The position numbers and the translations under genes were made by a program. Shown here piece after piece: positions 31,790-53,228 of a DNA stretch of 64,000 nucleotides. Numbering within the stretch: position 1 is the first letter of the stretch; every line of letters starts with the position of its first letter. The notes below the pieces were generated by a model. It was not told the DNA's origin, searched no databases, and was given only the letters and a program-made list of their open reading frames with translations. The DNA is from Solirubrobacterales bacterium. Its GTDB lineage: Bacteria > Actinomycetota > Thermoleophilia > Solirubrobacterales > 70-9. The stretch spans positions 14,983-78,982 of the forward strand of contig DATIPH010000031.1 of assembly GCA_035472275.1 (NCBI GenBank). Direction: 5' to 3'.

Positions 31790-31835
31790 CGTTGGCGATC
31801 TTTTACCCGCTATAGGGGGTAGGAAGTCGCCAACG
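31790..31835. repeat. 46-bp palindromic element, copy A (intergenic)
   Basis: CGTTGGCGATCTTTTACCCGCTATAGGGGGTAGGAAGTCGCCAACG. Its arms are mutual reverse complements at 18/23 positions. It matches copy B at 52604-52649 in reverse orientation. Confidence 0.8.
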
Positions 31836-31854
31836 GGGGAGATTCTCCCTTCTG

Positions 31855-32793
31855 TTAGGTGATCGTCAGCGTGAAGCGGGCCTTGAAGGTCTCTTCGGGG
31901 GCGACGAGGGGCAGGTCGTGGCCGCTGCGCAGGGCGTCGGCGGGGGCGGTCATCGGCTCGAAGGCGATCACGTCGTCCTCGGCGGGGGCGTAGACCTGGG
32001 AGTAGCGGTAGCCCTCGCCGAGGCGCAGCTCGAGCCGGCGTCCGCCGCCGGCGAGGACGAAGGGCGCTCCGTCCGGCGGGGCGCGAAAGGCGTCGTCGAA
32101 GGTCCTGGCGCCAAGCGGCCCGGGAGCGACCTCCACCGGGTCGGTCCTGCCGGTGGGGAGCATCCGCTCGTCGAGCAGGAGCCGCTCAGTGACCGGGATT
32201 TCTAGCTCCCAGGCGTCGCGGGGGACGTCCGGCAGTCGCAGGTAGGGATGGAAGCCGAAGGCGACCGGCACGCTGACCTCGCCGCTGGGGCGGATGCTGA
32301 TCGCGATCGTCAGCTTGGGCCCGTCGAGCGTGGCCTCGTAGCCGATCTGGTGCGGGAAGGGAAAGGCTTCGATCAGGAGGGGCTGGGCGGAGAAATCGAA
32401 GCGGGCCGCGAGGACGCCGCCGTCGGCGCTCGTCTCGTGGCGCTCCACCTGCCAGCCTGCGGCGCCAGCGAGGAGACCGTGCATTGGCAGGCCGGCGGCG
32501 TCGGTGGCAAGGCGCAGGTCGGGCAGCTCGAGATCGACCGTGCCTCCCGCAACCTCGAAACGCCGGCCGCCGAGCCGATTCGCCCACGGGTAAAGCAACG
32601 GGATCCCCATCGTCTTACCGGCCTCCAGATAGGGGCGCAGGCCACCGCGCTGGCCGAGTAGCTCCTCGCCACGGTGGCGCAGCGAGCAGCCGATCATCCC
32701 GCCGCCCGGCGCGAAGGCGACCTCGACGCCGCCCGCCGCCTCGCTGCTCAGGGTCAGTGCCCGCACGCCCTCGACCTCGCGTTCGCCGATCAC
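31855..32793 (-). CDS. Aldose 1-epimerase family protein
   Basis: GIPLLYPWANRL and AFGFHPYLRLP are typical of the mutarotase-like family. Confidence 0.8.
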   Translation of the reverse strand: MIGEREVEGVRALTLSSEAAGGVEVAFAPGGGMIGCSLRHRGEELLGQRGGLRPYLEAGKTMGIPLLYPWANRLGGRRFEVAGGTVDLELPDLRLATDAAGLPMHGLLAGAAGWQVERHETSADGGVLAARFDFSAQPLLIEAFPFPHQIGYEATLDGPKLTIAISIRPSGEVSVPVAFGFHPYLRLPDVPRDAWELEIPVTERLLLDERMLPTGRTDPVEVAPGPLGARTFDDAFRAPPDGAPFVLAGGGRRLELRLGEGYRYSQVYAPAEDDVIAFEPMTAPADALRSGHDLPLVAPEETFKARFTLTIT

Positions 32794-32852
32794 GGCGCCA
32801 GTACATCACGCAGGGCCGCTTAACCGGAGCCGAAGTCGGGAACCAGGAGACC

Positions 32853-33722
32853 ATGCTCGCCGTCGGGTTGCTCTGTGGGATCGCCGCCTCCGTGCTGTTC
32901 AACGTCGGCATCGCCTTGCAGGCGGTCGAGGCGCGGGAAGCCCCGCCGGAGGATGGCCTGCGGGTCTCGCTGCTCTACGGCCTGCTGCGGCGGCCACGCT
33001 GGATCGCCGGTCTCCTGCTCGGCGCGCTCGGCGTCCCGTTCGAGGTCGTCGCCTTCGCCAGCGCCCCCTTCGTCGTGGTCGAGCCGATCCTCGCCTGCGG
33101 CCTCCTGGTCCTGCTCGCGGTGGGCGTGCGGCTGCTCGGCGAGCGCCCCAGCGTCACCGTCGTCCTTGGCGTCGTCGCGATCATCGCCGGCACCGCTCTG
33201 GTCGCCTGGGGGGCGCCGCCGCACGCCGAGCAGCACCGCGGTCCAGCCGCGGTCGTCGCTGTGATGGCGCTACTCGTCGGTGCCTCGCTCGTGCCCTTCG
33301 CCCTGCGGGGCACGCGCTGGGACAACGCCCTCGTACCCAACCTCGGCTCCGCCTGCGGCTTCGCCGCAACCAACGTGGCGGCGAAGCTGCTGGCCGACGA
33401 CCTCGGGAGCAGCCACTATCCGGTGGCGGTCGGCTGGCTGACGGTCGCCGCCTTCGCCGGCGTTGCCGCGACGATCACCGGGATGACGGCATTGCAGCGG
33501 CGGCCGGCGACCACCGTGGTGCCGATCTCGACCGCGGTCCAGACCTTCCTGCCGGTGGCGCTCGAGCCCCTGTTCCTGATCGAGAGCTGGCGTGCGGCCG
33601 AGCTCGGCGGCGGCGTGCTGTTCGCCGGCCTCCTCGTCCTCCTGCTCGGCACCGTGCTTGTCGCCCGCACCCGTTCGGTCAGCACCCTGACCGCCGGCGA
33701 GCCGGCAATCGAGCCGCCCTGA
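32853..33722 (+). CDS. Polytopic membrane transporter-like protein (DMT/NIPA-like)
   Basis: About 9 hydrophobic helices. AGGAGA Shine-Dalgarno before ATG 32853. The track start at 32484 lies antisense to the epimerase gene. Confidence 0.6.
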   Translation: MLAVGLLCGIAASVLFNVGIALQAVEAREAPPEDGLRVSLLYGLLRRPRWIAGLLLGALGVPFEVVAFASAPFVVVEPILACGLLVLLAVGVRLLGERPSVTVVLGVVAIIAGTALVAWGAPPHAEQHRGPAAVVAVMALLVGASLVPFALRGTRWDNALVPNLGSACGFAATNVAAKLLADDLGSSHYPVAVGWLTVAAFAGVAATITGMTALQRRPATTVVPISTAVQTFLPVALEPLFLIESWRAAELGGGVLFAGLLVLLLGTVLVARTRSVSTLTAGEPAIEPP

Positions 33723-33816
33723 GCGGCCGAATTGACGCCTCGATCGAACCCTCACCAAACACACTGTCCACTTACGGTCGGCGAGCCGTTGACCGAAGTG
33801 AGAAAGTTGAGCGTGG

Positions 33817-34617
33817 ATGGCGCAGTGGAACAACGGCAAGCGTTTCGATGGCCGGGTTGCGATCGTCACCGGCGCCGGTGGCGCCCTCGGCGGCGCCGTC
33901 GCCCGCGCGCTCGGCCGCGAGGGGGCGACCGTCGCGCTTGGCTACCGCAGCTCGGAGGACTCGGCCCGGGCAGCGCTGGCTGACGCCGAGGCCGCCGGCG
34001 GGCGGGGACACATCGCCCCGCTCGAGGTGACCGACGCCGATTCGGTCGCCGACTTCGTCGCCGGCGTCGCCGAGCGCTACGGCCGGATCGACGTCGTCGT
34101 CAACGCCGCCGGGCGCATCGACCCCGCGGACGCCGTTCGCTTCGAGGCCTCCGACGCGGGCGCCTTCGCGCAGCTGCTCGACGTCGACCTGCTCGGCAGC
34201 TTCCGGGTCTGTCGGGCGGCCGCCCCGCACCTGCGCGCAACCGGCAACGGCGCGATCGTCAACTTCTCCGGCTCTTACGGCAACGGCACCGTCCAGGAGA
34301 ATGTCGTCAACTCGGTCGCCGTCACCTACTGCGCGGCCAAGGGCGGGGTCCGCGCCTTCACCTCCGCCCTGGCCCGCGACCTGGCGCCAGAGGTCCGGGT
34401 CAACGCCGTCGCCCCGGGGCCGATCGCGGCCAACTGGGAGGACGACTGGGAGATCCCGCAGGAGCACGTTGACCAGGCGCTGGCGATGACGCCGCTGGGG
34501 CGGATGGGCAAGCCGGAGGAGATCGCCGAAACCGTCCTCTACCTCGCTTCCGACGGGGGCGGCTACACGACCGGCCAGGTGCTCGAGGTCAGCGGCGGCT
34601 GGATCCTCGACGGGTGA
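33817..34617 (+). CDS. SDR-family oxidoreductase (FabG-like)
   Basis: VAIVTGAGGALGGAVA and YCAAKGGV motifs. Confidence 0.85.
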   Translation: MAQWNNGKRFDGRVAIVTGAGGALGGAVARALGREGATVALGYRSSEDSARAALADAEAAGGRGHIAPLEVTDADSVADFVAGVAERYGRIDVVVNAAGRIDPADAVRFEASDAGAFAQLLDVDLLGSFRVCRAAAPHLRATGNGAIVNFSGSYGNGTVQENVVNSVAVTYCAAKGGVRAFTSALARDLAPEVRVNAVAPGPIAANWEDDWEIPQEHVDQALAMTPLGRMGKPEEIAETVLYLASDGGGYTTGQVLEVSGGWILDG

Positions 34618-34621
34618 TGGG

Positions 34622-36400
34622 ATGACGGACCTCGACGTAGATCTCGGTGCCCTCCTGCCCTCCGACCTCCCCGATGGGCGCGAGGCGGTCGCCGAGGGTC
34701 GCGCCCTGGCCGCCGGGGTAGAGCGCGCCCGCTCGCTCTTCTGCGAGGCCAATGGCGTCGCCGCCGAGCGCGAGTGGCGCGAACGGGCGCGCACGGAGGG
34801 CTTCGCCTGCACCTGCATGAACATCGGCCTCGCGACCTGGGCGGACACCCGCGAGGCGCTCGGCCGGATCCACGAAGACGCACTCTCGCGCGGAGTGCGG
34901 CCGCCGGACCGCTTCAACCTGATCGCCGAGCGGCGGATGGGCCTACCGAAGGACAAACGGGCGCAGGCGCCGCAGGAGACTGGGCCGGCATTGTGGAGTG
35001 AGCAGGACTGGTGGGACCTCGCCCACACGGTGCCGATCCAGCCCGAGGCGGCGGACAACATGATCGGCGGGCCCGGCTCGCTCGACAACGCGCTCGACGC
35101 GCTGCGGGTCGGGATCACTCACATCGGCGTCCTCTCCCAGTACACCTGGCGCTGGCCCTACTGGGATGACGAGGTGAGCCAGACGATGGCGGTGCTGAAG
35201 GCCGCCGGCCTGCTGTCCGCCTTCAAAGCCGAGGGCGTCTGCTTCGACTCCTATCTCGAGGACGGCTATCCCGGCGTCTTCCACGACTACGCCAACTACG
35301 TCGGCTGGGCGATGCTCGAGCGCTACGTCAGCGAGGAGTTGGTCGGCGCCGCCTACTCCTGCTCCTGGGGTGGCCTCACCCAGGACCCGGTCGTCAAGTC
35401 GGCGGTGACGCTCGCCCTGCACGCGGTCAACCCCGACGCGGTCCCCGCCGGCTTCGTCCAGGGCGACACGATCGGCAACACGCCGGACTTGGACTCCAAC
35501 CTGGCCGTGCTCAGCACCGACGTCCTCTTCATGAAGCTGGTCGACAGCCGCTACCGGCTCGGCGGCGCGCCGATCGCGGTGCCGGTGACCGAGACCGAGC
35601 GCATCCCCTCCTGGGATGAGGTGGCGACGGTGCAGACGATCAGCCGCCGGCTTGAGGAATACGTGCCGCTGGTCGACCCAGTGGTCGACTGGGGGCGGAT
35701 CGAGCGGCTGCGCGACCAATTGGTCGCCGGTGGCCGTCGCTTCTTCACGGCCGCGATCGAGGGCCTGGGCAGCGCCGGGATCGACGTCCACGACCCCGCG
35801 CAACTACTGCTCGTCCTCAAACGCCTCGGCTCCAGCCGCTGCGAGGAGCTGTTCGGAGCTGGCGCACCCGACGAGGGGTTCCCGCGCGGGCGCCGGCCGG
35901 TCCTGCAGACGGACCTGGTCAAGAGCACGATGGCCGAGCGCGAGCGCCTGCTGGCCGAGCTCCGTGGTCGTGGTCAGGAGGACGCGATCCGCGGCATGAA
36001 GGTGCTCGTCACCTCGACCGATGTGCACGAGTTCGCCGAGTTCCTGCTTACCTCGGCCCTCGCCGCCGTCGGCACCGAGGTGATCGACTTCGGGATCAAC
36101 CGCGACCCGGAGGACATCGTCAAGGCGGTGATCGAGACCGACGCCGACGCCGTCGTTGTCACCACCCACAACGGCGTCGCCCGTTCCTTCGGACAGCGCC
36201 TGATCGGCGCGCTGGGGCAGGCGCAAGCCCGGCAGGTCCCGGTCTTCATGGGTGGGGTTCTGAACGAGGACGTCGACGGCTCCGAGATCCCGATCGACGT
36301 CCGCGCCGACCTCAACGCGAGCGGGATCGAGACGCCGGGGACGATCGACCGCCTGGTCGACACGCTGATCGCGCGCCGCGGCGGCGGTGTCCCGGCCTAG
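34622..36400 (+). CDS. Fused mutase-like protein with C-terminal cobalamin-binding domain
   Basis: The C-terminal ~125 aa (KVLVTSTDVHEFAEFLLTSALAAVGTEVIDFGINRDPEDIVKAV..DADAVVVTTHNG) look like a B12-binding Rossmann domain with a DxHxxA variant of the DxHxxG motif. The N-terminal ~450 aa form a large barrel-like domain. Confidence 0.6.
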   Translation: MTDLDVDLGALLPSDLPDGREAVAEGRALAAGVERARSLFCEANGVAAEREWRERARTEGFACTCMNIGLATWADTREALGRIHEDALSRGVRPPDRFNLIAERRMGLPKDKRAQAPQETGPALWSEQDWWDLAHTVPIQPEAADNMIGGPGSLDNALDALRVGITHIGVLSQYTWRWPYWDDEVSQTMAVLKAAGLLSAFKAEGVCFDSYLEDGYPGVFHDYANYVGWAMLERYVSEELVGAAYSCSWGGLTQDPVVKSAVTLALHAVNPDAVPAGFVQGDTIGNTPDLDSNLAVLSTDVLFMKLVDSRYRLGGAPIAVPVTETERIPSWDEVATVQTISRRLEEYVPLVDPVVDWGRIERLRDQLVAGGRRFFTAAIEGLGSAGIDVHDPAQLLLVLKRLGSSRCEELFGAGAPDEGFPRGRRPVLQTDLVKSTMAERERLLAELRGRGQEDAIRGMKVLVTSTDVHEFAEFLLTSALAAVGTEVIDFGINRDPEDIVKAVIETDADAVVVTTHNGVARSFGQRLIGALGQAQARQVPVFMGGVLNEDVDGSEIPIDVRADLNASGIETPGTIDRLVDTLIARRGGGVPA

Positions 36401-36409
36401 GGCACGGGC

Positions 36410-37804
36410 TTGTCCGCTTTCGTCCTCGCCGATTTCGGCAGCACCTTCACCAAGGTGCGTTTGGTCGATCGCGCCGAGGGGCGGCTGCTGGCCCGGGCAG
36501 AGGCGCCGACGACGGTCGGCACCGATCTGATGGACGGCTACGCGGAGGCGTTGGCGGCGGCCCGGTCCGGGCTCGACGAGGCGGTCGAGATCGAGGCCGA
36601 GATCGCCGCCTCCAGCGCCGGCGGCGGCTTGCGGGTGGCGGCGATCGGGCTGGTCGCCGACCTGACCGCGGCCGCGGCACGGCAGACGGCGCTGAACGCG
36701 GGCGCCCGGGTCGGGGCGGTGCTGGCTGGGGAGCTCGACGCGGAGCAGCTGACGCGGCTCGACGCGGCCGCGCCCGAGATCGTCCTCTTCGCCGGCGGCA
36801 CCGATGGCGGCCAGCGCGAGCTGGTGCTCGCCAACGCCCGCCGCCTCGCCGGCCATGGCCTTGCGGCCCGCGTCGTCGTCGCTTGCAATGCGGCGATCGC
36901 CGAGGAGGTGGCGGCCCTGTTCGAGGCGGCGGGGATCGCGGCGACGGTCGCCGCCAACGTGATGCCGGCGCTGGGTCAGCTCGAGATCGAGCCGGCGCGG
37001 GCCGCGATCTCGGCCGCCTTCCTCGAGCATGTGATCGGGGGCAAGGGCCTCAGCGCCAGCCCCGAATTCGCGCGGATGGTGCGGATGCCGACCCCGGAGG
37101 CGGTGCTGACTGCGACCCGGCTGCTCTCGCGCGGTCCCGGTCAGCGCGGTGGGGTGGGGGACGTGCTCGTCGTCGACGTCGGCGGCGCCACCACCGACGT
37201 CCATTCCGATCGCGCCGCGCAGCCGGCGACGCCGGGGATCGAGGAGCCGTTGCTGCCGGCGCCGCCGACCCTGCGCACGGTCGAGGGCGACCTCGGCCTG
37301 CGCGCCGGGGCGCCGGGGGTCGTCGCCGCCGACCGCGGCTGGCTTGCGCAGCGACTGCAGGGCGGAGAGGAGGCGGAGCTCGATCGGGCCGGCGCCGACC
37401 GCGCCAAGCGTCCGGCCTGGGTCCCGGAGAGCGTTGCCGATGCCCACTTCGATCGGCTGCTGGCGACCGCTTGCGTCGCCCACGGGCTCGACCGCCACTG
37501 CGGCACGATGCTGCTGAGCCGCAGCGCGAAGGGGCCGCCGACCCTGGTCCGGGCGGGTCCCGACCTGCGCGAGGTCAGCCGCGTGATCGGGACCGGCGGC
37601 GTCTTCGCCCACGGTGAGGGCGGGGAGGAGGTCTTGCGCGACGGGCTGGAGCGGCGCTCACCGCGCTCGCTCTCGCCGCGCGAGCCGGAGATAGCAATCG
37701 ACCGCGGCTACATCCTCGCCGCCGCCGGCCTGCTCGCTTCGATCGATCCCGAGGCCGCATTCCGACTCCTGCAGAGGGAGGTGTTCGACTGTGTTCAAGC
37801 GTAG
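36410..37804 (+). CDS. glmL: GlmL/MutL-type glutamate-mutase accessory (reactivase-like) protein
   Basis: N-terminal FVLADFGSTFTKVRLVD and VLVVDVGGATTDVH are ASKHA-fold phosphate motifs typical of GlmL. Confidence 0.7.
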   Translation: MSAFVLADFGSTFTKVRLVDRAEGRLLARAEAPTTVGTDLMDGYAEALAAARSGLDEAVEIEAEIAASSAGGGLRVAAIGLVADLTAAAARQTALNAGARVGAVLAGELDAEQLTRLDAAAPEIVLFAGGTDGGQRELVLANARRLAGHGLAARVVVACNAAIAEEVAALFEAAGIAATVAANVMPALGQLEIEPARAAISAAFLEHVIGGKGLSASPEFARMVRMPTPEAVLTATRLLSRGPGQRGGVGDVLVVDVGGATTDVHSDRAAQPATPGIEEPLLPAPPTLRTVEGDLGLRAGAPGVVAADRGWLAQRLQGGEEAELDRAGADRAKRPAWVPESVADAHFDRLLATACVAHGLDRHCGTMLLSRSAKGPPTLVRAGPDLREVSRVIGTGGVFAHGEGGEEVLRDGLERRSPRSLSPREPEIAIDRGYILAAAGLLASIDPEAAFRLLQREVFDCVQA

Positions 37805-38762
37805 GCGGAAGGAGGAGCCGCTGCGGTTGTTCTACGCGGGGGACGTGCACGGCTCGCGCGTCTGCTGGAAGAAGTTCATCAACGCCGCCGCCCACTACCC
37901 GGCCGACGTGCTGGTGATGGGAGGTGATCTGACCGGCAAGGCGCTGGTCCCGATCGTCCGCCGTGGCGATGGCTCCCACCTTGCCCGCGTGATCGGCGAG
38001 GAGCGCGAGGCCCACGGCGCGACGGAGCTCGAGGAGCTGGAGGCGGCGATCGCGACCAACGGCATGTACCCGACGATCGTCAACGAAGCTGAGGCGGAGC
38101 GGCTGCGAACCGACTCCGCCCACCGCGAGCAGGTCTTCGAGCGGGCGCTGCTGGGCGAGCTGACGCTGTGGGTCGAGTTCGCCGACGAGCGCCTTGCCGG
38201 CACTGACACTCGCGCCTACGTGATCCCCGGCAACGACGACCCCTGGTCGGTCGACGCGATCCTCGAGTCGGGGGCCGCGGTCGACGCCTGCGACGAGCAG
38301 GTGCGAATCGTCGGCGCCCACGAGATGATCTCCTTCGGCTACTCCAACCGCACCCCGTGGGACACCCCGCGCGAGCTCGACGAGGAGGAGATCTACACCC
38401 GTCTCAAGGTGCTCGCCGATCAACTCGAGAATCCAAGCGGGGCGATCTTCAATATTCACGTCCCACCGCGTGACAGCAGCCTCGATACCGCCTACGAGGT
38501 TGACGAGGAGCTGCGCTACGTGATGAAGGGCGGCCGGCCCCACGAGATCGCGACCGGCAGCTCAGCGGTGAAGCAGATCATCGAAGAGGTGCAGCCGCTG
38601 CTCAGCCTGCACGGTCACATCCACGAGAGCAAGGGTATGACCAAAATCGGCCGCACCGTCGCAATCAACCCCGGATCGGACTACGGCAGTGGTCATCTCG
38701 ACGGCTGTTTGGTACACCTTGGGCAAGAGCGCGTAGTCAGCCAATACCTGGTCTCCGGGTAA
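37791..38762 (+). CDS. Metallophosphoesterase
   Basis: YAGDVHGS, VMGGDLTGK, GNDDP and LHGHIHES motifs. Confidence 0.8.
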   Translation: MFKRRRKEEPLRLFYAGDVHGSRVCWKKFINAAAHYPADVLVMGGDLTGKALVPIVRRGDGSHLARVIGEEREAHGATELEELEAAIATNGMYPTIVNEAEAERLRTDSAHREQVFERALLGELTLWVEFADERLAGTDTRAYVIPGNDDPWSVDAILESGAAVDACDEQVRIVGAHEMISFGYSNRTPWDTPRELDEEEIYTRLKVLADQLENPSGAIFNIHVPPRDSSLDTAYEVDEELRYVMKGGRPHEIATGSSAVKQIIEEVQPLLSLHGHIHESKGMTKIGRTVAINPGSDYGSGHLDGCLVHLGQERVVSQYLVSG

Positions 38763-38779
38763 TAGTCCAAAAAACTCAC

Positions 38780-40411: not shown

Positions 40412-40478
40412 CGGGGGCCCGCAGCAGGACCCCGTCTCGGAGGGCGGCAGAATCGCAACCGCCGGCGCCGAGCGGGGG

Positions 40479-41153
40479 TTGCCTCTGCGCCTTGCCGGTG
40501 GTGTCGCCGTCGCCGTTAGTTGCCCGAGCGCAGCGACGCCGCCGCTGCGGCGCGATTACGCCGACATTGACCTGGTCACGCTCAACACGGCGCGCGAGGG
40601 CGTGATTGAGCTGATGACCGGGCTGGGGTACGTCGGGGACCGTGAGTTCAACATGCTGCACGGGCACCGCCGGCTCCTGTTCTGGGATCGTGGCAATGAC
40701 CGCCAGGTCGATGTTTTTGTCGACACGGCGAAGCTTTGTCACACGATCGATTTCCGCCAGCGGGTGGAGGTGGTACCCACGACCCTGGCCCCGGCGGACC
40801 TGCTGCTGATGAAGTTGCAGGTGGTGGAGACGAACGAAAAGGACTTCCTCGACGTCTGCGCGATCCTCGCCGACCATGACCTCAGCGAGGACGAGCGCGG
40901 TGTCAACGCTTCATACATCGCTGAGCTGAGTGCCGCCGACTGGGGTCTGTGGCGTACGCTTGTGATGGTCTCCGAGCGTGGTGAGGAGTTCGCGCTCGGC
41001 TTACCCGGCTTCGATGCGGGTGATCAGGTTGCCGCGCGTCTGCGGCAACTGCGGCGGGAGATGGAGGCGGCACCGAAGAGTCGCGGTTGGAGGATGCGTG
41101 CGCGGGTAGGCGACCGCAAGCGCTGGTACGAGTTGCCTGAAGAGGCCCATTGA
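40479..41153 (+). CDS. Nucleotidyltransferase-fold hypothetical protein
   Basis: LRLAGGVAVAV ... DIDLVT resembles a GG..DxD NTase motif. The frame stays open upstream, so the true start is uncertain. Confidence 0.5.
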   Translation: MPLRLAGGVAVAVSCPSAATPPLRRDYADIDLVTLNTAREGVIELMTGLGYVGDREFNMLHGHRRLLFWDRGNDRQVDVFVDTAKLCHTIDFRQRVEVVPTTLAPADLLLMKLQVVETNEKDFLDVCAILADHDLSEDERGVNASYIAELSAADWGLWRTLVMVSERGEEFALGLPGFDAGDQVAARLRQLRREMEAAPKSRGWRMRARVGDRKRWYELPEEAH

Positions 41154-41237
41154 CCGGCCGGGAGGGGATATGAAGGAAACCAGGAGCATTCACGAACTCA
41201 CGGTGTGGTCTTTCACGCGCGTCGGGAGGGCCGTCCG

Positions 41238-44934: not shown

Positions 44935-44943
44935 GTTTGGCGT

Positions 44944-45024
44944 GGTGGGGCGGGGTGACCCCTCCCAAAACCCGCTCGCTTCGCTCGCTTTTGAGTGTTT
45001 TGGGAGGGGTCACCCCGCCCCACC
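44944..45024. repeat. Perfect 28-bp inverted repeat with a 25-nt loop
   Basis: GGTGGGGCGGGGTGACCCCTCCCAAAAC ... GTTTTGGGAGGGGTCACCCCGCCCCACC, 10 nt after the aldehyde dehydrogenase stop. Confidence 0.85.
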
Positions 45025-45198
45025 CAACGGGAAGCTCCTCTAACCCCACGAGGTCACTAGCTTCCGTTGGCCAAATCACCACCGGATTTTTGGGAGAGCT
45101 TCCGTCCCTCGCAAGCTAAGTGAGAAATTGGGGCGTTATCCGAACCTTGACCGGCTCCGCCAAGCGGAACATCCCAATTCGGAATCCCGATTTCGGTT

Positions 45199-45314
45199 GG
45201 AGGGTCGGGTGGCCCTCGTACGAGCGGCGTCCTGATTTTCGCAGTGCCCGTCAGCGAGAGCTGGGCAGTTAAAGGCGAAAATCCCAGCGAAGGTAGAGGG
45301 CCACCCGACCCTCC
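45199..45314. repeat. Nested long hairpin: perfect 19-bp outer stem enclosing a 9-bp inner stem
   Basis: Outer stem GGAGGGTCGGGTGGCCCTC ... GAGGGCCACCCGACCCTCC. Inner stem GATTTTCGC ... GCGAAAATC. Confidence 0.8.
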
Positions 45315-45329
45315 CCCAAACCCCGATCC

Positions 45330-46406
45330 CTAACCCTTTTTGTGTTTCTCCCGCATCTCGCGACTCTTGACCTTCGCGTCCTTATACGACGACTCCACCA
45401 GAGCCTTGCCGCCACTCCACCCGAACACCCACGAAACGACGATCACCGCGAACAGCACGTCCCAGGCGGAGATCACCAGTTGTTGACCGATCGAGTAGGC
45501 GGTCGCGGTCGAGGCGTCGACCGATCCCGAGAGCGCGGCCGAGTTCATCGCCTGGGTGACGCCGACGCCGCCGGGCGTGGCGGAGACGCTGTTGGAGATC
45601 GAGTTGGAGGCGGTCACGGTGGCGATGTTGTGGAAGGTGACGGGGATCCCATAGGCACCGAGGAAGACACCGACGATCGCCAGTCGGGCCGCGTAGCTGC
45701 CGAGCTCGGGCAGGAAGAGGTCGAGGAAGGTGCGTCGCGGGCTGCGGAGGATGGCGCCGCCCGCCGCGGCCTCTTCGCGCAGCTTGCGCAAGCGCGGCCA
45801 GAAGATGCGCGCCAGTAGCGCCAGGAGGACGATGGCGCCGACGACGATCAGGATCACCAACGCCTCGTGGTCTTCGAGGAAGCCGAGCTTGATCCCGAAG
45901 GAGCCGCTGACCGAGATGAAGAGGTAGAGGTAGAGGCCGACGTTGAAAGCGCTGAAGAAGATCTTCTCGACGATCAGGCCGGAGAAAACCATCGTGAAGG
46001 TGGCGCCGGCGAGCAGCGTCGTGAACATCAGCAGCATCACCCAGGTGCCGATGTTGGCGGGCAGGAAGGTGTTGAGCGCGACCGCAACCGCGTAGCAGGC
46101 GAGGATCAGCCGGTAGGAGACGCGGGCGTGGGGGAGGGCAGCGCGGAGGATCCCGAACCAGGCCAGTGCCGCCAGCGAGGTCTGCGCCGTCTCCAGCAGC
46201 ACCCCGGTGATGACAGCCCAGGGCGGGATCTCGCCGACCTTGCGGAACAAATCCCGGATCCAGTCGCTGGCGGGGACGCCGAGCAGGTCGAGGACAGCGA
46301 TGAAGAGGACGACGGCGCCGATCCAGATCGCGATCCGCGCCAGGCGCCGCCGCACTGGGTTAGGTTGCGGCGGTGATCCCCCCTCGTCGCTGGCTGCCGG
46401 TCTCAC
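45330..46406 (-). CDS. Polytopic membrane protein (UPF0104 / lysyl-PG-synthase TM-domain-like)
   Basis: About 8 TM helices with a basic N-terminus. The family call is tentative. Confidence 0.6.
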   Translation of the reverse strand: MRPAASDEGGSPPQPNPVRRRLARIAIWIGAVVLFIAVLDLLGVPASDWIRDLFRKVGEIPPWAVITGVLLETAQTSLAALAWFGILRAALPHARVSYRLILACYAVAVALNTFLPANIGTWVMLLMFTTLLAGATFTMVFSGLIVEKIFFSAFNVGLYLYLFISVSGSFGIKLGFLEDHEALVILIVVGAIVLLALLARIFWPRLRKLREEAAAGGAILRSPRRTFLDLFLPELGSYAARLAIVGVFLGAYGIPVTFHNIATVTASNSISNSVSATPGGVGVTQAMNSAALSGSVDASTATAYSIGQQLVISAWDVLFAVIVVSWVFGWSGGKALVESSYKDAKVKSREMREKHKKG

Positions 46407-47773
46407 TGGCGCTGACTGTATTGGCGCTCACGGCTGGCGCGGCTCCGTCCGCGGAGGCTGTTCGGCCGAAGCTCGAGCCCTGCAACCTCGGGATGCCACG
46501 GCTGTTTCGATGCGGCCATGTGACCGTGCCGGTTCGCCGCGCTGACCCCGCGCTGGGGACGACCAAGGTCGCCTTCGCGGTCCGTCCCCGCTCCGACCGC
46601 AGCCAGCCGCCCCTGGCGACGATCGTGGCGATGGACGGTGGCCCCGGCTACGCCTCGACGGCCCCGGAATACGCCAGCTCGCTGGTCGCAGCGCTGGGGC
46701 CGCTGCTGCGCCGCCACGACCTCGTCCTCTTCGACGAGCGCGGGACCGGTCGCTCGGAAGCGATCGACTGCCCCGGCCTGCAGGGCGGCCTGGTCCAGGA
46801 ATACATCGCCGTCGGCGAGTGCGCCAACCAGCTCGGCCCGCGCTACGCCGGCTACACCACCGCCGAAGCGGCCGAAGACCTCGAGGTCGTCCGGCGCTCG
46901 CTCGGCCTCGGCAAGGTCTTCTTCTACGGCGACTCCTACGGGACCCTGTTCGGCCAGGCCTACGCCGTCCGCCACGAATCCAGCCTCAGGGGCCTGATCC
47001 TCGATTCCAGCTACCCGGGGACCGACGACCCCTACTACCGCTCGATCTATCCGGCGAGCCTGCAGGGACTGCGAATCACCTGTCGCGTCTCGCCGACCTG
47101 CTCGGGCGATCCGGTCGCCCGCCTCAGCGGCGTGGTGAGGCGCTTCCAGGCCACCCACCGCTCGACCGACGACCTTCTCTCCGTCCTCTTGCAGGCCGCC
47201 TACCTCGCGCCCCGCTCCTACCTCAGCCTTGACGACGGCAACCGCCGCTTCCTCGAAGGGGATCCGCGGCGGCTGAACCGCCTGATCGATTCCGGTCGGC
47301 CCGGCAACGGCGACCCCACCGCCTTCTCCTACGGCCTCGAGATCGCGGTGGAGTGCAACGACTACCCGCTGCTCTGGGACCCGCAGGCGCCGATCGACGA
47401 GCGCATTCGGCAGCTCTCGGTCGCGATCAGCAAAATGCCCCAGAACTACTACGCGCCCTTCACCCGGCGCGAGTACATCCTCTCCTCGGCGGCCCGGCTG
47501 ACCAATTGCCTGGCCTGGCCCGCGCCGCCGGCCAGCGGGCTGGAGCGGCCCGTGCCCTCGGGCTGGCGCGCGTCACGTTCCTTCCCGACCCTGATCCTCG
47601 CCGGCCAGGTGGATAACGTCACCTCGGTCGCGGAAGGGAGAGAAGTCGAGGCGCGCTTCCCACGCTCGCGCTTCTACGTCGTCCCCGATCGCGGCCACGT
47701 CTCTGCCCTCTACTTCCCCTTCCGTTCGCCCGCGGTCGGTGTGATCCGCGCGTTCATTGCGGAGCATTCGTAG
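46373..47773 (+). CDS. Secreted alpha/beta hydrolase (tripeptidyl-aminopeptidase-like)
   Basis: Signal peptide and nucleophile elbow GDSYG. Confidence 0.75.
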   Translation: MIPPRRWLPVSLALTVLALTAGAAPSAEAVRPKLEPCNLGMPRLFRCGHVTVPVRRADPALGTTKVAFAVRPRSDRSQPPLATIVAMDGGPGYASTAPEYASSLVAALGPLLRRHDLVLFDERGTGRSEAIDCPGLQGGLVQEYIAVGECANQLGPRYAGYTTAEAAEDLEVVRRSLGLGKVFFYGDSYGTLFGQAYAVRHESSLRGLILDSSYPGTDDPYYRSIYPASLQGLRITCRVSPTCSGDPVARLSGVVRRFQATHRSTDDLLSVLLQAAYLAPRSYLSLDDGNRRFLEGDPRRLNRLIDSGRPGNGDPTAFSYGLEIAVECNDYPLLWDPQAPIDERIRQLSVAISKMPQNYYAPFTRREYILSSAARLTNCLAWPAPPASGLERPVPSGWRASRSFPTLILAGQVDNVTSVAEGREVEARFPRSRFYVVPDRGHVSALYFPFRSPAVGVIRAFIAEHS

Positions 47774-47898
47774 GCAAGGCGCTTTTGTTCTCTCTGGGTG
47801 TACAAAAGCGCCTTGTCGGGCTGAGCTGACTCGGCGATCGCCGCGGGACTGTCGAAAACCCCGCCCAATCGCCGCCGCGGCCAGTACCTTTGCCGGCG

Positions 47899-49587
47899 AT
47901 GAGAAGGGCTTTCGCGATCGCCGTCCTGCTCGCCCTGGTCGCCTTGTCGGCCCTGGCACCGGCGGGACAGGCGAAGACCGCCTTCACGGACGTCACCGTC
48001 GGCAAGGTGGCGCTGGCGCCGTTGCCCCACGGACGCGGCGTGCTGCTGGTTCGTGTCGCCTATCCGATCGATCTCCTCGGCCGCCGGTTCGACCTCGAAG
48101 TCTTCGTCGATCGCCCGGGCGGCGGGCGCCAGCGCCTGTTCGGAGCCCCGATCGCTCTCAGCGGCGGCCTGCCCCGTACCCCCGAGCGACGGGGCCGGTT
48201 CCGGTTCGTGCACCAGGTCGTCCTCGACGCGGCGCAGACTCGGGCCGCGCGCGAAGCCGGGCAGGTCGAAGTCAAGGCAGACGGGTCGCTCGACGTCAAC
48301 CACGACGGCGTTCTCGAGCTCAGTGCGCAGGGGCAGGCCAGACGTCCGCTGGGAGGTTCCGGCACCCCCGTCTGCGGCACCGTGCCTCTGCTCCGCTCCT
48401 ACTACAGCCGCCGCGTCTCGGTCAAGCTGCCGGCCTGCACGAGCCCGCGGCGCTGGCGGGTCGCGTCCTCTCCCGAACACGGCAGGGTCCGGATCCACAG
48501 CCCCTGGCTCACCTATACCCCGGCGGCGAAGTTCCGCGGCACCGACACGCTGAGCTTGGTCGCGAGCCCGCCGCGAGGCGCCTCGGCCTCGGCGGAACCG
48601 CTCTCCGAACCGGTCGTCGTCCGGGTCGGTAGCGCCGCCCACGCCGTCGTTCGGGCGATGGGGGACTCGGTGACCGCCGGCTTCGGCTACTACGACACCG
48701 GCAGGCCGATGCCCCTGGTCAACCTGCTCGAATGCAAACCGGGCAACGTCAAGCTGATCGATTCCTGCTCGTCGAACTCGGTGGTGGTGAGCAACGAAGC
48801 GAAGGAAGTCGAATACGCGCCCGACTACGGCCTCGCCAACAACATCTCCTGGGCGGCCCAGTGGTCGAACGAACACGGGATCAGCGACTACGAGAACCTC
48901 GCGATCAGCGGCTCGGAGCCGGGCCAGTGGGCCCCCGGCGGCCCCCTGTATGCGACCACTAAGCAGATCGAGTCCGAAGACCCGGACTACATCCTGATGA
49001 CGCTCGGGGCCAACCCGCTGCTCGACGAAATGCTGTTCGGGATCGACAGCATGGGCTGCGCGATCTACTCCGACATCTTCGGCGGCTACCAGGAATGCGT
49101 CGAAGAATCGTTCGCCAAGATCCGCCTCCACGAAAGCCTCGAAGACATCTACCGGGAGCTGGTCAAGAACACCGACGCGACGATCTACCTGATGCAGTAC
49201 CACCTCTCGATCCCCTCGACCGCGCTCGCCTACAGCGCCGTCCAAATCGCCGAGGTGGCGAAACTGATGAACGCCGAAATCGCCAAGGTGGCGAGCGAAG
49301 TGAACCCGCAACGGCTGCAGGTGGTGACGCCGCCGCACTTCAACGTCGGCATCGACCTTTCTCCCGTCTACCCGTCGAAGTACTCGTGCTCGCGGCTCGA
49401 CTACAAGGTCGACGGCCCCAGCGTCCAAATCGGCGCGACCCAGGACGAGCTGCTGATCAGCCACCCGCTCTCGTTCTGCAGGGGTCCGGTCACGGGCCCG
49501 CCGTGGGTGATCACCGGCGACACCGGGATCCACCCCAGCGCCACCGGCTACACCCAGATGGCCTCGCAGATCCCGGCGCCTGAATAG
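47899..49587 (+). CDS. Secreted SGNH/GDSL-family hydrolase with N-terminal extra domain
   Basis: Signal peptide AIAVLLALVALSALAPAGQA, block I AMGDSVTAGFG, block V IHPSATGY. Confidence 0.75.
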   Translation: MRRAFAIAVLLALVALSALAPAGQAKTAFTDVTVGKVALAPLPHGRGVLLVRVAYPIDLLGRRFDLEVFVDRPGGGRQRLFGAPIALSGGLPRTPERRGRFRFVHQVVLDAAQTRAAREAGQVEVKADGSLDVNHDGVLELSAQGQARRPLGGSGTPVCGTVPLLRSYYSRRVSVKLPACTSPRRWRVASSPEHGRVRIHSPWLTYTPAAKFRGTDTLSLVASPPRGASASAEPLSEPVVVRVGSAAHAVVRAMGDSVTAGFGYYDTGRPMPLVNLLECKPGNVKLIDSCSSNSVVVSNEAKEVEYAPDYGLANNISWAAQWSNEHGISDYENLAISGSEPGQWAPGGPLYATTKQIESEDPDYILMTLGANPLLDEMLFGIDSMGCAIYSDIFGGYQECVEESFAKIRLHESLEDIYRELVKNTDATIYLMQYHLSIPSTALAYSAVQIAEVAKLMNAEIAKVASEVNPQRLQVVTPPHFNVGIDLSPVYPSKYSCSRLDYKVDGPSVQIGATQDELLISHPLSFCRGPVTGPPWVITGDTGIHPSATGYTQMASQIPAPE

Positions 49588-49613
49588 ACGAGAACGACTG
49601 GGCGACCCAACAC

Positions 49614-49991
49614 ATGGCGCGGGTTTCGATGCCCACCCAGAAGGAGCTGGTTCGGCTGCGGATCGCGATCCTCAACGGCTGCGTCACCTGCCAGTCGGCG
49701 CGGCTGGCGCCGGAGAGCGTGCCGGAGCAGCAAGCGACCGGGATCTGGAGGGACGACTTCGCCGCCAACCCCGAGTACAGCCCGGCCGAGCGCGCAGCGG
49801 TCGAATTCGCCGAACGGATGGCGGTCGACCACCACGGCATCGGCGACGCCGACGTCGAAGTCCTGCGCGAGCACTTCGACGACGCCGAGATCCTCGAGCT
49901 GATGATGATGGCTGGCCAGTACATCGGCTTCGGCCGCTGCCTGGCGATCCTCCAGCTCGAGGACGTCACCTGCCCGCTGCCGGCGCGCTAG
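49614..49991 (+). CDS. Carboxymuconolactone decarboxylase (AhpD-like) family protein
   Basis: The CVTCQSAR CxxC motif in an AhpD-like context. Confidence 0.7.
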   Translation: MARVSMPTQKELVRLRIAILNGCVTCQSARLAPESVPEQQATGIWRDDFAANPEYSPAERAAVEFAERMAVDHHGIGDADVEVLREHFDDAEILELMMMAGQYIGFGRCLAILQLEDVTCPLPAR

Positions 49992-50005
49992 ACGCGCGCC
50001 GGCAG
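49977..50005. terminator. Bidirectional terminator-like hairpin (12-bp GC stem, 5-nt loop)
   Basis: CTGCCGGCGCGC-TAGAC-GCGCGCCGGCAG between convergent genes. It includes the stop codon of the upstream gene. Confidence 0.55.
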
Positions 50006-50013
50006 GGTCGGCT

Positions 50014-50382
50014 TCAGTTCCCCAGTTCTTCCAGCTTCTTTTTCGCTTCTTCGACGCCCTTTTCAGCCTGTTGCTTGCCTTCTTCGATCCCCTTTTCGGC
50101 CTTCTTGACGCCTTCTTCGATCCCCTTCTTGGCGCTGCCCTTGCCTTCTTCGATCTGTTCCTTGGCCTTTTCGATGCCCTTTTCGGCTTCCTTGGTGCCT
50201 TCTTCGATCCCCTTTTCGGCCTGTTCGGTGCCCTTTTCGATCTGTTCCTTCGCGGTCTGCGTGCTGTCGTCGCTGCCGCAGCCGGACCAGATGACGCCGC
50301 CGGCCATCAGCGCGAACACCGCGACCAGGATCGGGCCGAGGGTTCGCAGCTTGGTGGTCTTGGTCGACTGACCGTCTCTCAT
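50014..50382 (-). CDS. Lipoprotein made of 11-residue amphipathic repeats (LEA/apolipoprotein-like)
   Basis: Lipobox IWSGCGS, then a run of 11-aa units such as AEKGIEEGTKE / AEKGIEKAKEQ / KKGIEEGVKKA / EKGIEEGKQQA. Confidence 0.7.
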   Translation of the reverse strand: MRDGQSTKTTKLRTLGPILVAVFALMAGGVIWSGCGSDDSTQTAKEQIEKGTEQAEKGIEEGTKEAEKGIEKAKEQIEEGKGSAKKGIEEGVKKAEKGIEEGKQQAEKGVEEAKKKLEELGN

Positions 50383-50422
50383 CGTTGATCTCCCACTCGT
50401 TTGCAGTTGCAGAGCGAAGCTA

Positions 50423-50776
50423 TTGCATGTTGTGGACACTTTCAGCGTGGACGAAGCTGAGCTGGACGAATTCGAGTCGCTGGTCGCCGACGCGATAGAC
50501 GGCCTGCCTGAGCAGTTCCAGCGGCTGCTGGTAGAGGTCCCAGTGGTTATCTCCGAACTCGGTTCAGAGCAACAGGCCTACGGGGAGTACTTCGGCGACG
50601 GTGTCGCCCACCAGGGCTTCGAGGACCGGATCGTGATCTACCGCGACACGCTTGAGCGCGACTTCGGCCACGACCGCGCCCGGCTCGCGCGGGAGGTCGA
50701 GCGGACGCTGCGCCACGAGCTCGCCCACCACCTTGGCGGGGAGGAGAGCGACGTCGATCGCCTCGGCCTCGGCTGA
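50423..50776 (+). CDS. Small zincin-like metallopeptidase-family protein
   Basis: HELAHHLG is an HExxH motif in a ~117-aa acidic protein. Confidence 0.6.
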   Translation: MHVVDTFSVDEAELDEFESLVADAIDGLPEQFQRLLVEVPVVISELGSEQQAYGEYFGDGVAHQGFEDRIVIYRDTLERDFGHDRARLAREVERTLRHELAHHLGGEESDVDRLGLG

Positions 50777-50795
50777 GCCGGCGCCAGGCTTGGGA

Positions 50796-51581
50796 TCAGG
50801 CGCCGGCCCGCACCGTGCAGTTGCGGGTCAGCGTGGTTGTGATCTCCCTGCCGTCGGCGAAGTCGAAGGCGCCGCGAGCGAAGGTGAAAGGGGCGCCGGG
50901 GAAGCCGGCGGGGGCAGCGCAGCTCGCGCTGATGTAGCTGCGGCGCTTTCCTTCGAAGGAGTACTGGCGGCCGATCTTCAGCGCGACCCTGGTGATCGAG
51001 CCGAGACCGCCGGCGAGGGTCGGAATCCGGGCAGTCAGCGTCGTACCGAACTTGCCCTTGCCCTGGTGGGTGATCACCAGTGGCAGGACCAGCGTCACTT
51101 GCACCGGCACGGACACGTAGAAATGGAGCAGGAGGGCGGGTTTGCCCTGAAAGAGGCCGTTGAAGACGAGGGCGTGGCCATGGGCGGGGGTCAACTGGCC
51201 GAGGGTTTCGAGCGAGGCGGAGAAACCGCCATGGCCGACCAGCGCCGATCTGCAGCGTCCCATCGCTGCGTTGTCGGTAGTCGATTGCAGCAGCGCCGTC
51301 GTGCAGGTAGGCAAGCCGCGGTTAGAGATCCGGCCGGCGCGGTTGAGGCCGATCTGCAGTTCCCGTAGGGCCGGTGGTCGGGTGCCGTCGGTGGTGCCGA
51401 TCGAGCCTTCGACGCTGACCGTGATCGGCGCCAGCCGCTCGCGGGGCAGCGAGTGCGGCGTGAAGCCGCCCTGGAAGGAGATCCGCAGGTTCCCCTTTTG
51501 GCTCAACTCTCCCTTGGCGATGCCGGCCGTGAGAAGCACGGCAAGCGTCAGCAGCGCGGATATGGCAAGGCGGCGGCGCAT
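50796..51581 (-). CDS. Secreted hypothetical protein
   Basis: Signal peptide MRRRLAISALLTLAVLLTAGIAKG. No family recognised. Confidence 0.6.
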   Translation of the reverse strand: MRRRLAISALLTLAVLLTAGIAKGELSQKGNLRISFQGGFTPHSLPRERLAPITVSVEGSIGTTDGTRPPALRELQIGLNRAGRISNRGLPTCTTALLQSTTDNAAMGRCRSALVGHGGFSASLETLGQLTPAHGHALVFNGLFQGKPALLLHFYVSVPVQVTLVLPLVITHQGKGKFGTTLTARIPTLAGGLGSITRVALKIGRQYSFEGKRRSYISASCAAPAGFPGAPFTFARGAFDFADGREITTTLTRNCTVRAGA

Positions 51582-51632
51582 TCGTTCCCAACCGTCAGTC
51601 TAGGTCGCGGATTCTGTGGCTAGGGTTGAGCG

Positions 51633-53228
51633 ATGGTTGAGTCTGGGGCCTGGGCCGAGCTCTCTGACGGCGACGAGTTCGCCGGCTACCGGATCGAGCG
51701 CCGGCTCGGCCGCGGTGGCATGGGGATCCTCTTCCTGGCGCTCGAGCCCGGCCTCGAGCGGCGGGTGGCACTGAAGTTGATCGCGCCGGAGGCGGCCGCA
51801 GACGACGTCTTCGCCCGGCGCTTCGCCGAGGAGTCAAAGATCGCCGCCTCAATAGAGCACCCGAACGTAGTCCCGATTTACGCCGCCGGTGAGGAGGGCG
51901 GGATCCCGTATATCGCGATGCGCTATGTCGCCGGCTCCGACCTCGGCGTCCGGATCGCCCGCGAGGGCCGGCTCGATCCCGAGCTGACGGTGGCGCTGAT
52001 CGCCCAGGTCGGAAACGGCCTCGACGCAATTCACGCCGCCGGCCTGGTCCACCGCGACGTGAAGCCGGCCAACGTCCTAATCAGCGGCGACGCGGGGGCG
52101 GAGCACGCCTACATCACCGACTTCGGCGTCGCCCGCAACGTCGCCACCCAGTCGGGCCTGACCCAGACCGGCCGCTTCGTCGGCACCCTCGACTACGTCG
52201 CCCCCGAGCAGATTTCGGGCGGCGCGATCGACGCCCGGGTCGACGTCTACGCGCTCGGCTGCCTGCTCTACAAGCTGCTCACCGGCCAAGTCCCGTTCCC
52301 GCGCGAGGGCGAGGCGGCCCGCCTCTATGCCCACCTCAACGACCCACCTCCGAATCCCTCGCTCTACGTGCCGGCGGTGTCGATGGCACTCGACGACGTC
52401 GTCGTCCGGGCGATGTCGAAGCAGCCCGACGACCGCTATCCCTCGGCCGGCGACCTCGGCCGTGCCGCCCAGGCCGCCCTCAGGGGCACCGGGGTCCCGA
52501 TTCCGGAGCGCACCGTCGCGACCGGCGCCGCCGCCACGGTCGAGTCCCAACAGGTGAGGGAGCCCCCGACGGAACCAACGCGGCCCGAGCCCACGCGCCG
52601 TGACGATGGCGATGTTGACCCCCCTATAGGGGGTAAAAAATCGCCAACGAGCGCGAGGCAGCGGTTGCCGGCGCTCGCGGGCGGGGCAGCGGCCCTGGTG
52701 GCGATTGTGGTCCTGATTGTCGTGCTCGCCTCGGGCGGGGGAGGGGGTACCGGCACCGCAGCGACGACGACGCAGGAAGAAACGGCGCCGAAGGAACAGA
52801 CCACCAAGGAAGAAGCGAAGAAACCGAAGTCGGAAACGGATCGCCTCTCCACGCGCGAGCTCGTCGCCGGGGCGGACAAGAGCTGCGAAGAAGCGAGGAC
52901 GACGTACGAAGGGGTGAAAGCCGAATTCGGCGGCACGAAGGAAGCGGAAGAAATCCCCAACGTCGAATTCGCCAAAGAGCTCGTCGGCATCTCCAGCAAG
53001 CAGGTACAGGACCTCGAAGCGCTGGTGCCGCCGAAGAGCAAGGAAGACGAGTTCGACGCCTACCTCAGCTCGCGCCGCCGCGTCGCCGCCTGGGACAGGG
53101 ACGCACTGGCCGCCGCAAAGGAAGGCAACGAAGGCGCATACCGGTCCGCCTATGAACTGCGTACGGAAACGGAACCGGAACGCGAACAGCTCGCTGATGA
53201 AATCGGCTTCAAGGTCTGTAGCCAGTAG
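51633..53228 (+). CDS. Transmembrane Ser/Thr protein kinase
   Basis: GRGGMG, VALK, HRDVKPANVL, DFG and APE motifs. TM helix AAALVAIVVLIVVLA, then an extracytoplasmic C-domain. Confidence 0.9.
   Translation: MVESGAWAELSDGDEFAGYRIERRLGRGGMGILFLALEPGLERRVALKLIAPEAAADDVFARRFAEESKIAASIEHPNVVPIYAAGEEGGIPYIAMRYVAGSDLGVRIAREGRLDPELTVALIAQVGNGLDAIHAAGLVHRDVKPANVLISGDAGAEHAYITDFGVARNVATQSGLTQTGRFVGTLDYVAPEQISGGAIDARVDVYALGCLLYKLLTGQVPFPREGEAARLYAHLNDPPPNPSLYVPAVSMALDDVVVRAMSKQPDDRYPSAGDLGRAAQAALRGTGVPIPERTVATGAAATVESQQVREPPTEPTRPEPTRRDDGDVDPPIGGKKSPTSARQRLPALAGGAAALVAIVVLIVVLASGGGGGTGTAATTTQEETAPKEQTTKEEAKKPKSETDRLSTRELVAGADKSCEEARTTYEGVKAEFGGTKEAEEIPNVEFAKELVGISSKQVQDLEALVPPKSKEDEFDAYLSSRRRVAAWDRDALAAAKEGNEGAYRSAYELRTETEPEREQLADEIGFKVCSQ
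52604..52649. repeat. 46-bp palindromic element, copy B (inside the kinase CDS, in frame)
   Basis: CGATGGCGATGTTGACCCCCCTATAGGGGGTAAAAAATCGCCAACG. The reverse complement of its right arm matches the left arm of copy A at 21/23 positions. Confidence 0.8.

Follow-up and report, generated by a model that had tools for sequence, protein, structure and literature searches.

Dispersed 46-bp palindromes paired with AbiEi-like/DUF559 nuclease genes in uncultured Solirubrobacterales

Our analysis suggests that a 46-bp palindrome found at two places in a stretch of DNA from a Solirubrobacterales bacterium belongs, as one family, to a superfamily of hairpin repeats that spans the genus, and that these palindromes are probably the cognate sites of multi-copy nucleases that combine an AbiEi-like region with a DUF559 domain. 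Three observations carry this reading. Families of hairpins are paired with AbiEi-DUF559 nuclease genes, one family to one gene; hairpin-bounded units of ~1 kb occupy different loci in different species; and the repeats form a genus-wide superfamily that is polymorphic between relatives, its in-frame copies in conserved genes included. The stretch, called the window here, is 64,000 nucleotides long and corresponds to C31:14983-78982 of the source metagenome-assembled genome (MAG), which we call G000; positions given without a contig are those of the window.

The source assembly has 2.98 Mb in 37 contigs with 68% GC, and the completeness of the MAG is 91%. Genes were predicted by our own codon-usage caller, which gave 2879 genes and 90.6% coding sequence. 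Members of family 1, to which the palindrome of the window belongs, are the nhmmer profile matches at E<=1e-10 in the 2.98-Mb genome. Hairpins in general were screened by a two-stem criterion with a simulated genome as control, and those upstream of the nuclease paralogues were located by direct palindrome scoring. A covariance model, R1, was built for the superfamily; for G000, 150 of 2298 candidates were scored and matches were counted on both strands. A screen by fold energy was discarded because a genome of 68% GC folds everywhere.

The original prediction, made from the letters of the window, had described a palindromic mini-element present twice, with one copy inserted in frame in a Ser/Thr kinase gene. 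Both palindromes are found where it had placed them (Table 1), and their left halves match at 21 of 23 positions as it reported, the identity over the full length being 37/46 in either orientation. The hexamer CTATAG at the palindrome centre is rare, with 63 occurrences throughout G000. Copy A is the gene-proximal hairpin of a family-1 nuclease unit. It lies between two minus-strand genes, 21 nt past the stop of an aldose epimerase gene and 60 nt upstream of the start of the nuclease gene, whose other neighbour encodes an ABC-transporter binding protein. The small hairpin motif beside copy A is the outer end of the block common to the units of G000 and of its relative G017. Copy B is a solo family-1 copy and reads in frame as DDGDVDPPIGGKKSPTS / DGDVDPPIGGKKSPTS, within the kinase's variable linker, between the catalytic domain and the transmembrane (TM) helix, again as predicted.

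What did not hold of the earlier description is the number two, which came from a view of the window only, since family 1 has 11 copies in the genome. The similarity of ~10 nt of flank that had been noted around copies A and B is not a family trait either, as the 11 copies have unrelated flanks, and no target-site duplication is visible in these. The possibility that two GC-rich palindromes simply resemble each other by chance has the high GC of the genome in its favour and nothing else. We regard it as negligible, given the 11 copies at E<=1e-10, the reversed-pattern controls (0 matches for the family-0 pattern and <=1 per genome for the family-1 pattern) and the two-stem palindrome scan, which gave 165 matches in the real genome against 52 in the simulated one.

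The genome-wide count proposed at the outset thus turned up many further copies, in family 1 and well beyond it. Clustering grouped the palindromes of G000 into about 20 sequence families, and the catalogue of their copies numbers at least 116. R1 gave 147 matches over both strands among the 150 scored candidates of this genome, put the number of hairpins at about 140, and recovered the catalogued copies together with about 20 singletons. All families have a common architecture, a palindrome of ~46 nt in which a GC-rich outer stem of about 10 bp starting with CG is followed by a middle section, T-rich on its 5' side and A-rich on its 3' side, a GC-rich inner stem of 5-7 bp and an AT-rich loop (ATA, TATAG or ATATG). 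The consensus across families is nCGnGG...CCnCGn, with CG...CG at the ends. In an alignment of 45 representatives, 87% of the cells pair, compared with about 40% when the partner is slid, and 20 of the 21 stem pairs vary on both sides, while hardly any variation is seen in the C-G/G-C pairs at the base and in two T-A pairs in mid-stem. This pairing signal is partly built in because the set was selected for palindromy, which does not apply to the fixed length and the invariant columns. The hairpins occur as singlets, with one close pair only (C22:189207/189281) apart from the pairs that flank nuclease genes, and Rfam gives no match at the elements.

A repeat of another kind was observed directly upstream of the family-1 copy at C36:19832 in G000. 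A ~110-nt sequence at C36:~19690-19799 (GGAGTTCCAGCGGGGGTGGAGGGGTCGGGTGCCCCTC...) has at least 12 copies with 86-95% identity in G017, and represents either a repeat or a structured element that is distinct from the hairpins and longer than they are.

Counting the 283-aa gene next to copy A itself, G000 has a set of about 14 paralogues with identities of 28-58%. A hairpin of ~45 nt lies 34-63 nt upstream of the conserved N-terminus (..RQHG/VVS..) in 12-13 of them, and each paralogue's hairpin has different stem sequences, i.e. it is a family of its own. The paralogue on C31 beside copy A goes with family 1, and those named C24a, C9, C14, C22, C3a and C24b go with families 0, 8, 2, 5, 3 and 9, respectively. 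The hairpin of C12 is 6-like and that of C2 is 10-like, and separate hairpins go with the paralogues C37, C3b and C11. The GGGGGAGA motif precedes most of the gene-proximal hairpins, and in C24a and C3a a hairpin is found on both sides of the gene. Measured with the same catalogue, an element is located <=110 nt upstream of 6/14 paralogues but of only 1.9% of all genes.

The protein is predicted to combine a winged-helix region for DNA binding that resembles AbiEi with a DUF559/Vsr-like nuclease of the PD-(D/E)XK type at the C-terminus. Pfam assigns DUF559 to residues 208-270, and a profile of 12 paralogues matches the DUF559 structure 3hrl with E 3e-5 in hmmsearch; the residues invariant among the paralogues are E193, D221, E232, D234, H239, D248 and R251. 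The AlphaFold model (pLDDT 89.6) matches the AbiEi antitoxin 6y8q over its N-terminal ~190 residues (E 2.7e-5), and its C-terminal domain matches the catalytic domain of I-Bth0305I (3r3p, TM score 0.80) and 3hrl (TM score 0.76). Vsr, DUF559 and the homing endonuclease I-Bth0305I were placed in one clade by a survey of PD-(D/E)XK enzymes (PMC3424549). NCBIfam has no name for the 283-aa protein.

The pairing extends beyond the source genome. Paralogues are present in 40/40 genomes of the genus, with 1-22 per genome, and homologues in 89/111 genomes of the order. The layout of motif, hairpin and gene is also seen in other genera and families of the order, with a hairpin on both sides in 2/5 examined cases. 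Across the 40 genomes, the number of paralogues is correlated with the number of R1 hairpin matches (rho 0.43, p 0.006).

The palindromes could alternatively be operators only, through which each paralogue represses itself, and the solo copies could be a regulon or decoys without any mobility. This would agree with the similarity of the N-terminal region to AbiEi, which autoregulates through inverted repeats, and with the fixed distance of the palindrome upstream of every paralogue. We nevertheless consider it unlikely, as the solo copies are found after stops and inside open reading frames (ORFs) and not at promoters, with 12 of 101 intergenic copies in divergent gaps. In addition, a copying process is required to account for near-identical copies at unrelated loci, the residues of the nuclease are conserved, the copies show presence/absence polymorphism and the whole unit is found at different loci.

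The last point, which bears on the reading of the palindromes as nuclease sites, is best seen at the locus of copy A. G017 has the same two neighbours there (89% and 79% identity) and a solo hairpin without the nuclease gene, so that the interval is 116 nt long in G017 and 985 nt in G000. The nuclease orthologue of G017 is located elsewhere (C55:60813-61802), and the 77% similarity between the two genomes spans exactly the gene, the spacer, the hairpin and the motif. The unit sites of G017 and of another relative, G069, adjoin the orthologue of G000 C3:45.4-46.05 kb, a locus where G000 has the solo hairpin C3:46229 only. Unit and solo hairpin are therefore exchanged at both loci between G000 and G017/G069 in a reciprocal pattern. 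The family-0 unit (C24:28584-29609) is found at the same locus in MAG L068, and in MAG L083 the family-0 similarity is confined to 1,044 nt from hairpin to hairpin with flanks that match the G000 contigs C28 and C30. The solo hairpin is the same as the terminal hairpin of the ~1-kb gene unit.

The superfamily is found in every genome of the genus that was scored with R1 (40/40, 4-138 matches each, 150 candidates scored), and in the rest of the order 30/110 genomes are positive with 1-14 matches each (55 candidates scored). Individual families are far more restricted. Family 0 is present in 12/101 genomes of the genus, family 1 proper in G000 and G017, and a family-1 variant with TGTCGA..TCGACA in G069, G104 and G111. 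In a search of 185,579 species, the family-0 pattern gave 57 stretches from about 14 uncultured soil MAGs and nothing else, these carriers being labelled Solirubrobacterales, Thermoleophilia or Conexibacteraceae; the exact family-1 pattern gave 0 matches in the same 185,579 species, the family being too species-specific for such a search. We also observed that many hairpin matches in the fragmented MAGs of relatives are <50 nt from contig ends (e.g. G051:C135:4-50, C90:2-48 and C154:29-75), which suggests that the repeats break short-read assemblies and get under-counted.

Comparison with orthologues shows that a site can be occupied, vacant or occupied by a hairpin with other stems, depending on the relative. 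The closest orthologue of the kinase (G017, 83% amino acid identity) holds the element at the same place, whereas in seven other orthologues, with 59-70% identity over the aligned parts (one of them aligned over only the first 320 residues from the N-terminus), the site of copy B holds either nothing or a sequence that is unrelated. At one codon position of MurT, G016, G075 and G017 carry hairpins with differing stems and the sites of G014 and G069 are empty, all length differences being multiples of 3. The isoleucyl-tRNA synthetase (IleRS) gene has a family-2 hairpin in G000, G014 and G075 (+27, +36 and +45 nt, respectively) and a short ..PEP.. segment in its place in G017, G069 and G016. Intergenic family-1 loci vary likewise, as some species have nothing there and others an unrelated hairpin that is built alike. 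The suggestion that the element resembles the repetitive extragenic palindromic (REP) sequences or MITEs (the miniature transposable elements with inverted repeats), and can enter ORFs in frame as the Rickettsia palindromic elements (RPEs) do, is supported by the many copies and by these polymorphic in-frame copies in the kinase, MurT and IleRS.

The hairpins tend to be located just behind genes. Intergenic copies make up 101/116 of the catalogue (87%), with 35 in convergent, 54 in tandem and 12 in divergent gaps, and the other 15 lie inside called ORFs. We found that 89 copies face the 3' end of a gene with a median distance of 7 nt to the stop codon, and 81% of these 89 are <=20 nt from the stop, compared with 14% under random intergenic placement. 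Many intergenic gaps consist of the hairpin element alone.

Such placement would also be expected if the hairpins were structures of RNA 3' ends, i.e. terminators or mRNA stabilisers comparable to TRIT ('tuberculosis Rho-independent terminator' in full) or to the REPs of E. coli, with the nuclease link being secondary. The filling of the same gene gap by unrelated hairpins in different species, as well as the copy number and position of TRIT (PMC3152330), would fit this as well. The strand-related features point the other way. There is no U-tract, and the inner stem is preceded by the T-rich part and followed by the A-rich part; for 45 solo hairpins in one-directional contexts, both strands fold with equal stability (sense -29.8 and antisense -30.2 kcal/mol, p 0.53); and mismatches of the G.U type and the A.C type number 74 and 80, which we take as equal. 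With no strand asymmetry and no U-tract, the constraint therefore looks like that of a DNA palindrome and not of an RNA terminator. Copies inside ORFs such as that of IleRS and the absence of any Rfam match also argue against an RNA element, and the pairing with genes would be left unexplained. The hairpins may have a 3'-end role, but we give little credence to the idea that this role is what they are.

The ORFs that host the 15 internal copies include, as named by inspection of their sequences, those of IleRS, an MMPL transporter, MurT, an E2 acyltransferase, PrmC and IspD. Each family uses one reading frame among these copies. Family 1 gives the in-frame peptide ..GD(I/V)xPxIGGxKSP.. in the kinase and MurT, and family 2 gives SRGSxxxxGDxKEPRD in several proteins. 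The hairpin elements have 3.8/6 open frames and random intergenic 48-mers 4.1/6; the elements are no more open than the random sequences and therefore not built for coding. As they have no special freedom from stop codons, the in-ORF copies look like survivors of selection. They appear to sit in tolerant parts of proteins, and copy B probably persisted by landing, free of stops, in a variable linker.

Two further kinds of in-ORF hairpins were observed in G000. The ORF of a 737-aa membrane protein (C30:55657-57870) has three hairpin-derived peptides, two from family-2 copies at a short distance from each other (SRGSLRTSGDYKEPRD and SRGSFSSSGVGKEPRD) and one from a family-5 copy. At C22:214237 and C11:12533, the final ~16 codons together with the stop region come from a hairpin in the ORFs of a hydantoinase-like and a glutamine amidotransferase-like protein, respectively, so the elements can remodel C-termini.

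The inner stems of family 1 are swapped between G000 and G017. All copies of G000 (11/11) have the inner stem ACCCC..GGGGT, whereas four of the seven copies of G017 have GGGGT..ACCCC and three have GACCG..CGGTC. The swap is seen at three orthologous loci, i.e. copy A and G017:C68:34505, copy B and C72:13258, and C22:193299 and C41:112855, and the swapped copies retain locus-specific variants of the outer arm such as CGATGG at the kinase. Simple inversion was rejected as the cause, since the reverse complement of the palindrome leaves the C-run on the left, and it is implausible that point changes arose independently at three loci. None of the known mutational events could by itself account for this pattern. 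Some process therefore homogenises or replaces the inner parts within a genome.

Table 1. Features of the window that are related to copies A and B.
Feature	Position	Strand	Description
Copy A	31790-31835		Family-1 46-bp palindrome; sequence CGTTGGCGATCTTTTACCCGCTATAGGGGGTAGGAAGTCGCCAACG
Copy B	52604-52649		Solo family-1 palindrome, 46 bp; sequence CGATGGCGATGTTGACCCCCCTATAGGGGGTAAAAAATCGCCAACG
Motif GGGGAGATTCTCCC	31836-31849	-	Conserved GGGGGAGA-type small hairpin next to copy A
AbiEi-like/DUF559 nuclease gene	30878-31729	-	283 aa; one of about 14 paralogues
Gene-plus-hairpin unit	30860-31849	-	~990 nt; block 77% identical to G017:C55:60813-61802
Ser/Thr protein kinase gene	51633-53228	+	531 aa, TM helix and extracellular domain; hosts copy B
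Aldose epimerase gene	31855-32793	-	Neighbour of copy A

Among the known systems, the closest is that of REPs and their associated tyrosine transposases (RAYTs), described by Nunvar 2010 (PMC2817692), Bertels & Rainey 2011 (PMC3116915) and Di Nocera 2013 (PMC3733652). Both systems have ~100 or more short palindromes, mostly just downstream of genes with occasional intragenic copies, and several families per genome, each tied to its own chromosomal enzyme gene that is flanked by the cognate repeat. The enzymes differ, as an AbiEi-like winged-helix-turn-helix fused to a DUF559/Vsr-like PD-(D/E)XK nuclease is found here instead of a Y1 HUH transposase. The repeats have no GTAG/CGTC tag, their stems of about 20 bp are longer (the whole element has 46 nt) and they are singlets and not the REP doublets called REPINs; the host phylum, Actinomycetota, is unmentioned in the 2013 survey (PMC3733652).

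Could the repeats be classical REPs or REPINs that are mobilised by a RAYT all the same? The high copy number of extragenic palindromes and the several families per genome would be consistent with that. However, the Y1 transposase domain PF01797 was found neither in G000 nor in any of the genus genomes searched (0/61), while the positive control of 14 reference genomes gave 6 with the domain, and together with the missing GTAG or CGTC tag and the singlets this makes such an origin highly improbable. The system is best described as one that works like REP/RAYT and yet falls outside it, with a nuclease partner in place of the transposase.

The RPEs are likewise in-frame palindromic repeats that add a peptide to conserved proteins and are polymorphic between relatives. 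They are longer, belong to alpha-proteobacterial endosymbionts and have a CGTC tag, which sets apart the hairpins described here; these are mostly extragenic and have a candidate partner enzyme. No dedicated transposase is known for RPEs, and intragenic REPs also exist (PMC3733652).

TRIT is a motif of Mycobacterium (Gardner 2011, PMC3152330), for which its authors suspected a binding factor. Like our repeats, it is an actinobacterial, genus-restricted hairpin with about 150 copies at gene ends, a likeness that concerns position and copy number only. TRIT is one family, is read as a terminator in RNA, and no gene linked to it is known, whereas our repeats fall into about 20 families, show no bias for a strand, have copies inside ORFs and are paired with a nuclease gene.

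On the protein side, the Vsr-like (EDxHD) homing endonucleases, e.g. I-Bth0305I (Dassa 2009, PMC2677866; Taylor 2011, PMC3239194), have the same nuclease fold, conserved acidic and His residues and a selfish, site-associated, free-standing gene. The gene in our case lies between ordinary genes and outside any intron, intein or split gene, its nuclease part is joined to an AbiEi-like region, and its palindromic site stays intact beside it and has many solo copies. AbiEi, of the type IV toxin-antitoxin system AbiE (6y8q), has the same fold as the N-terminal ~190 residues and binds inverted repeats upstream of its own gene. Unlike AbiE, the nuclease gene of the window has no AbiEii toxin gene adjacent to it, the C-terminal part of the protein is a nuclease and not a partner-binding domain, and there are about 14 copies, linked to dispersed repeats. 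Compared with MITEs, the solo hairpin equals the terminal hairpin of a ~1-kb unit, and no target-site duplication is seen around family 1. Overall, the comparison points to a previously undescribed partnership of repeat and enzyme that resembles REP/RAYT with a different enzyme.

We propose that the winged-helix region would bind the palindrome as a dimer, as AbiEi does its inverted-repeat operator, and that the Vsr/I-Bth0305I-like domain would nick or cut there. Repair or recombination at the cut sites could then copy, move, delete or overwrite hairpins as well as the gene unit. Solo hairpins may be left behind when the stretch between two flanking hairpins is deleted, and the nuclease might also spread solo hairpins in trans; a spread of the hairpin alone is needed because the IleRS copy cannot have come via a 1-kb insertion. 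The same process could convert inner stems between copies. Template-switch correction of quasipalindromes could keep the arms complementary without selection. We speculate, with less confidence than for the palindromes as cognate sites, that the AbiEi-DUF559 genes with their terminal palindromes could be an undescribed class of mobile or selfish elements, whose nucleases generate and homogenise the solo hairpins, in essential genes too.

Several points weigh against this picture. Binding and cleavage are inferred from the folds, as is the mechanism built on them. The palindrome upstream of the genes could be no more than an operator for autoregulation, and the close spacing behind stop codons could be due to selection for hairpins at 3' ends instead of targeting. 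Two or three paralogues have no clear hairpin, and families 4 (GCGTTCGCAC..), 7 (CGAGGTTGC..) and 11 (CGTGGTTGAGC..), with 4-9 copies each, have no matching paralogue in this 91%-complete MAG. The correlation between paralogues and hairpin matches is weakened because genomes of one genus are not independent, and the similarity of proteins and that of hairpins are not significantly related in a Mantel test (r 0.19, p 0.11), so we do not claim co-divergence of the two. Moreover, the gene calls come from a home-made caller, and the orthologue checks cover 3/15 in-ORF copies (kinase, MurT and IleRS).

The pairing bears on the origin and spread of REP-like repeats that lack a RAYT. To our knowledge, the CGTC-tagged REPs and the RPEs have no known enzyme, and we know of no function assigned to the large DUF559 family. 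In titles and abstracts we found no paper that links DUF559 or AbiEi-like proteins to dispersed palindromes, and among papers that mention both Solirubrobacterales and palindromes none is about such repeats. If our reading is true, REP-like repeats would have a second route of origin, one that is unrelated in mechanism, and the arm-swapped inner stems at three loci could arise by nuclease-triggered conversion between copies. About 14 nucleases, each with a distinct 46-bp palindrome, make up a natural specificity panel for assays of binding and cleavage and, again if the reading is true, a possible source of programmable palindrome-specific nucleases. The repeats can reshape proteins, as the in-frame insertions of 9-16 codons in IleRS, MurT and the kinase differ between species. 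If the nuclease drives the copying or conversion of its sites, this would be a new repeat-enzyme partnership in dominant uncultured soil bacteria.

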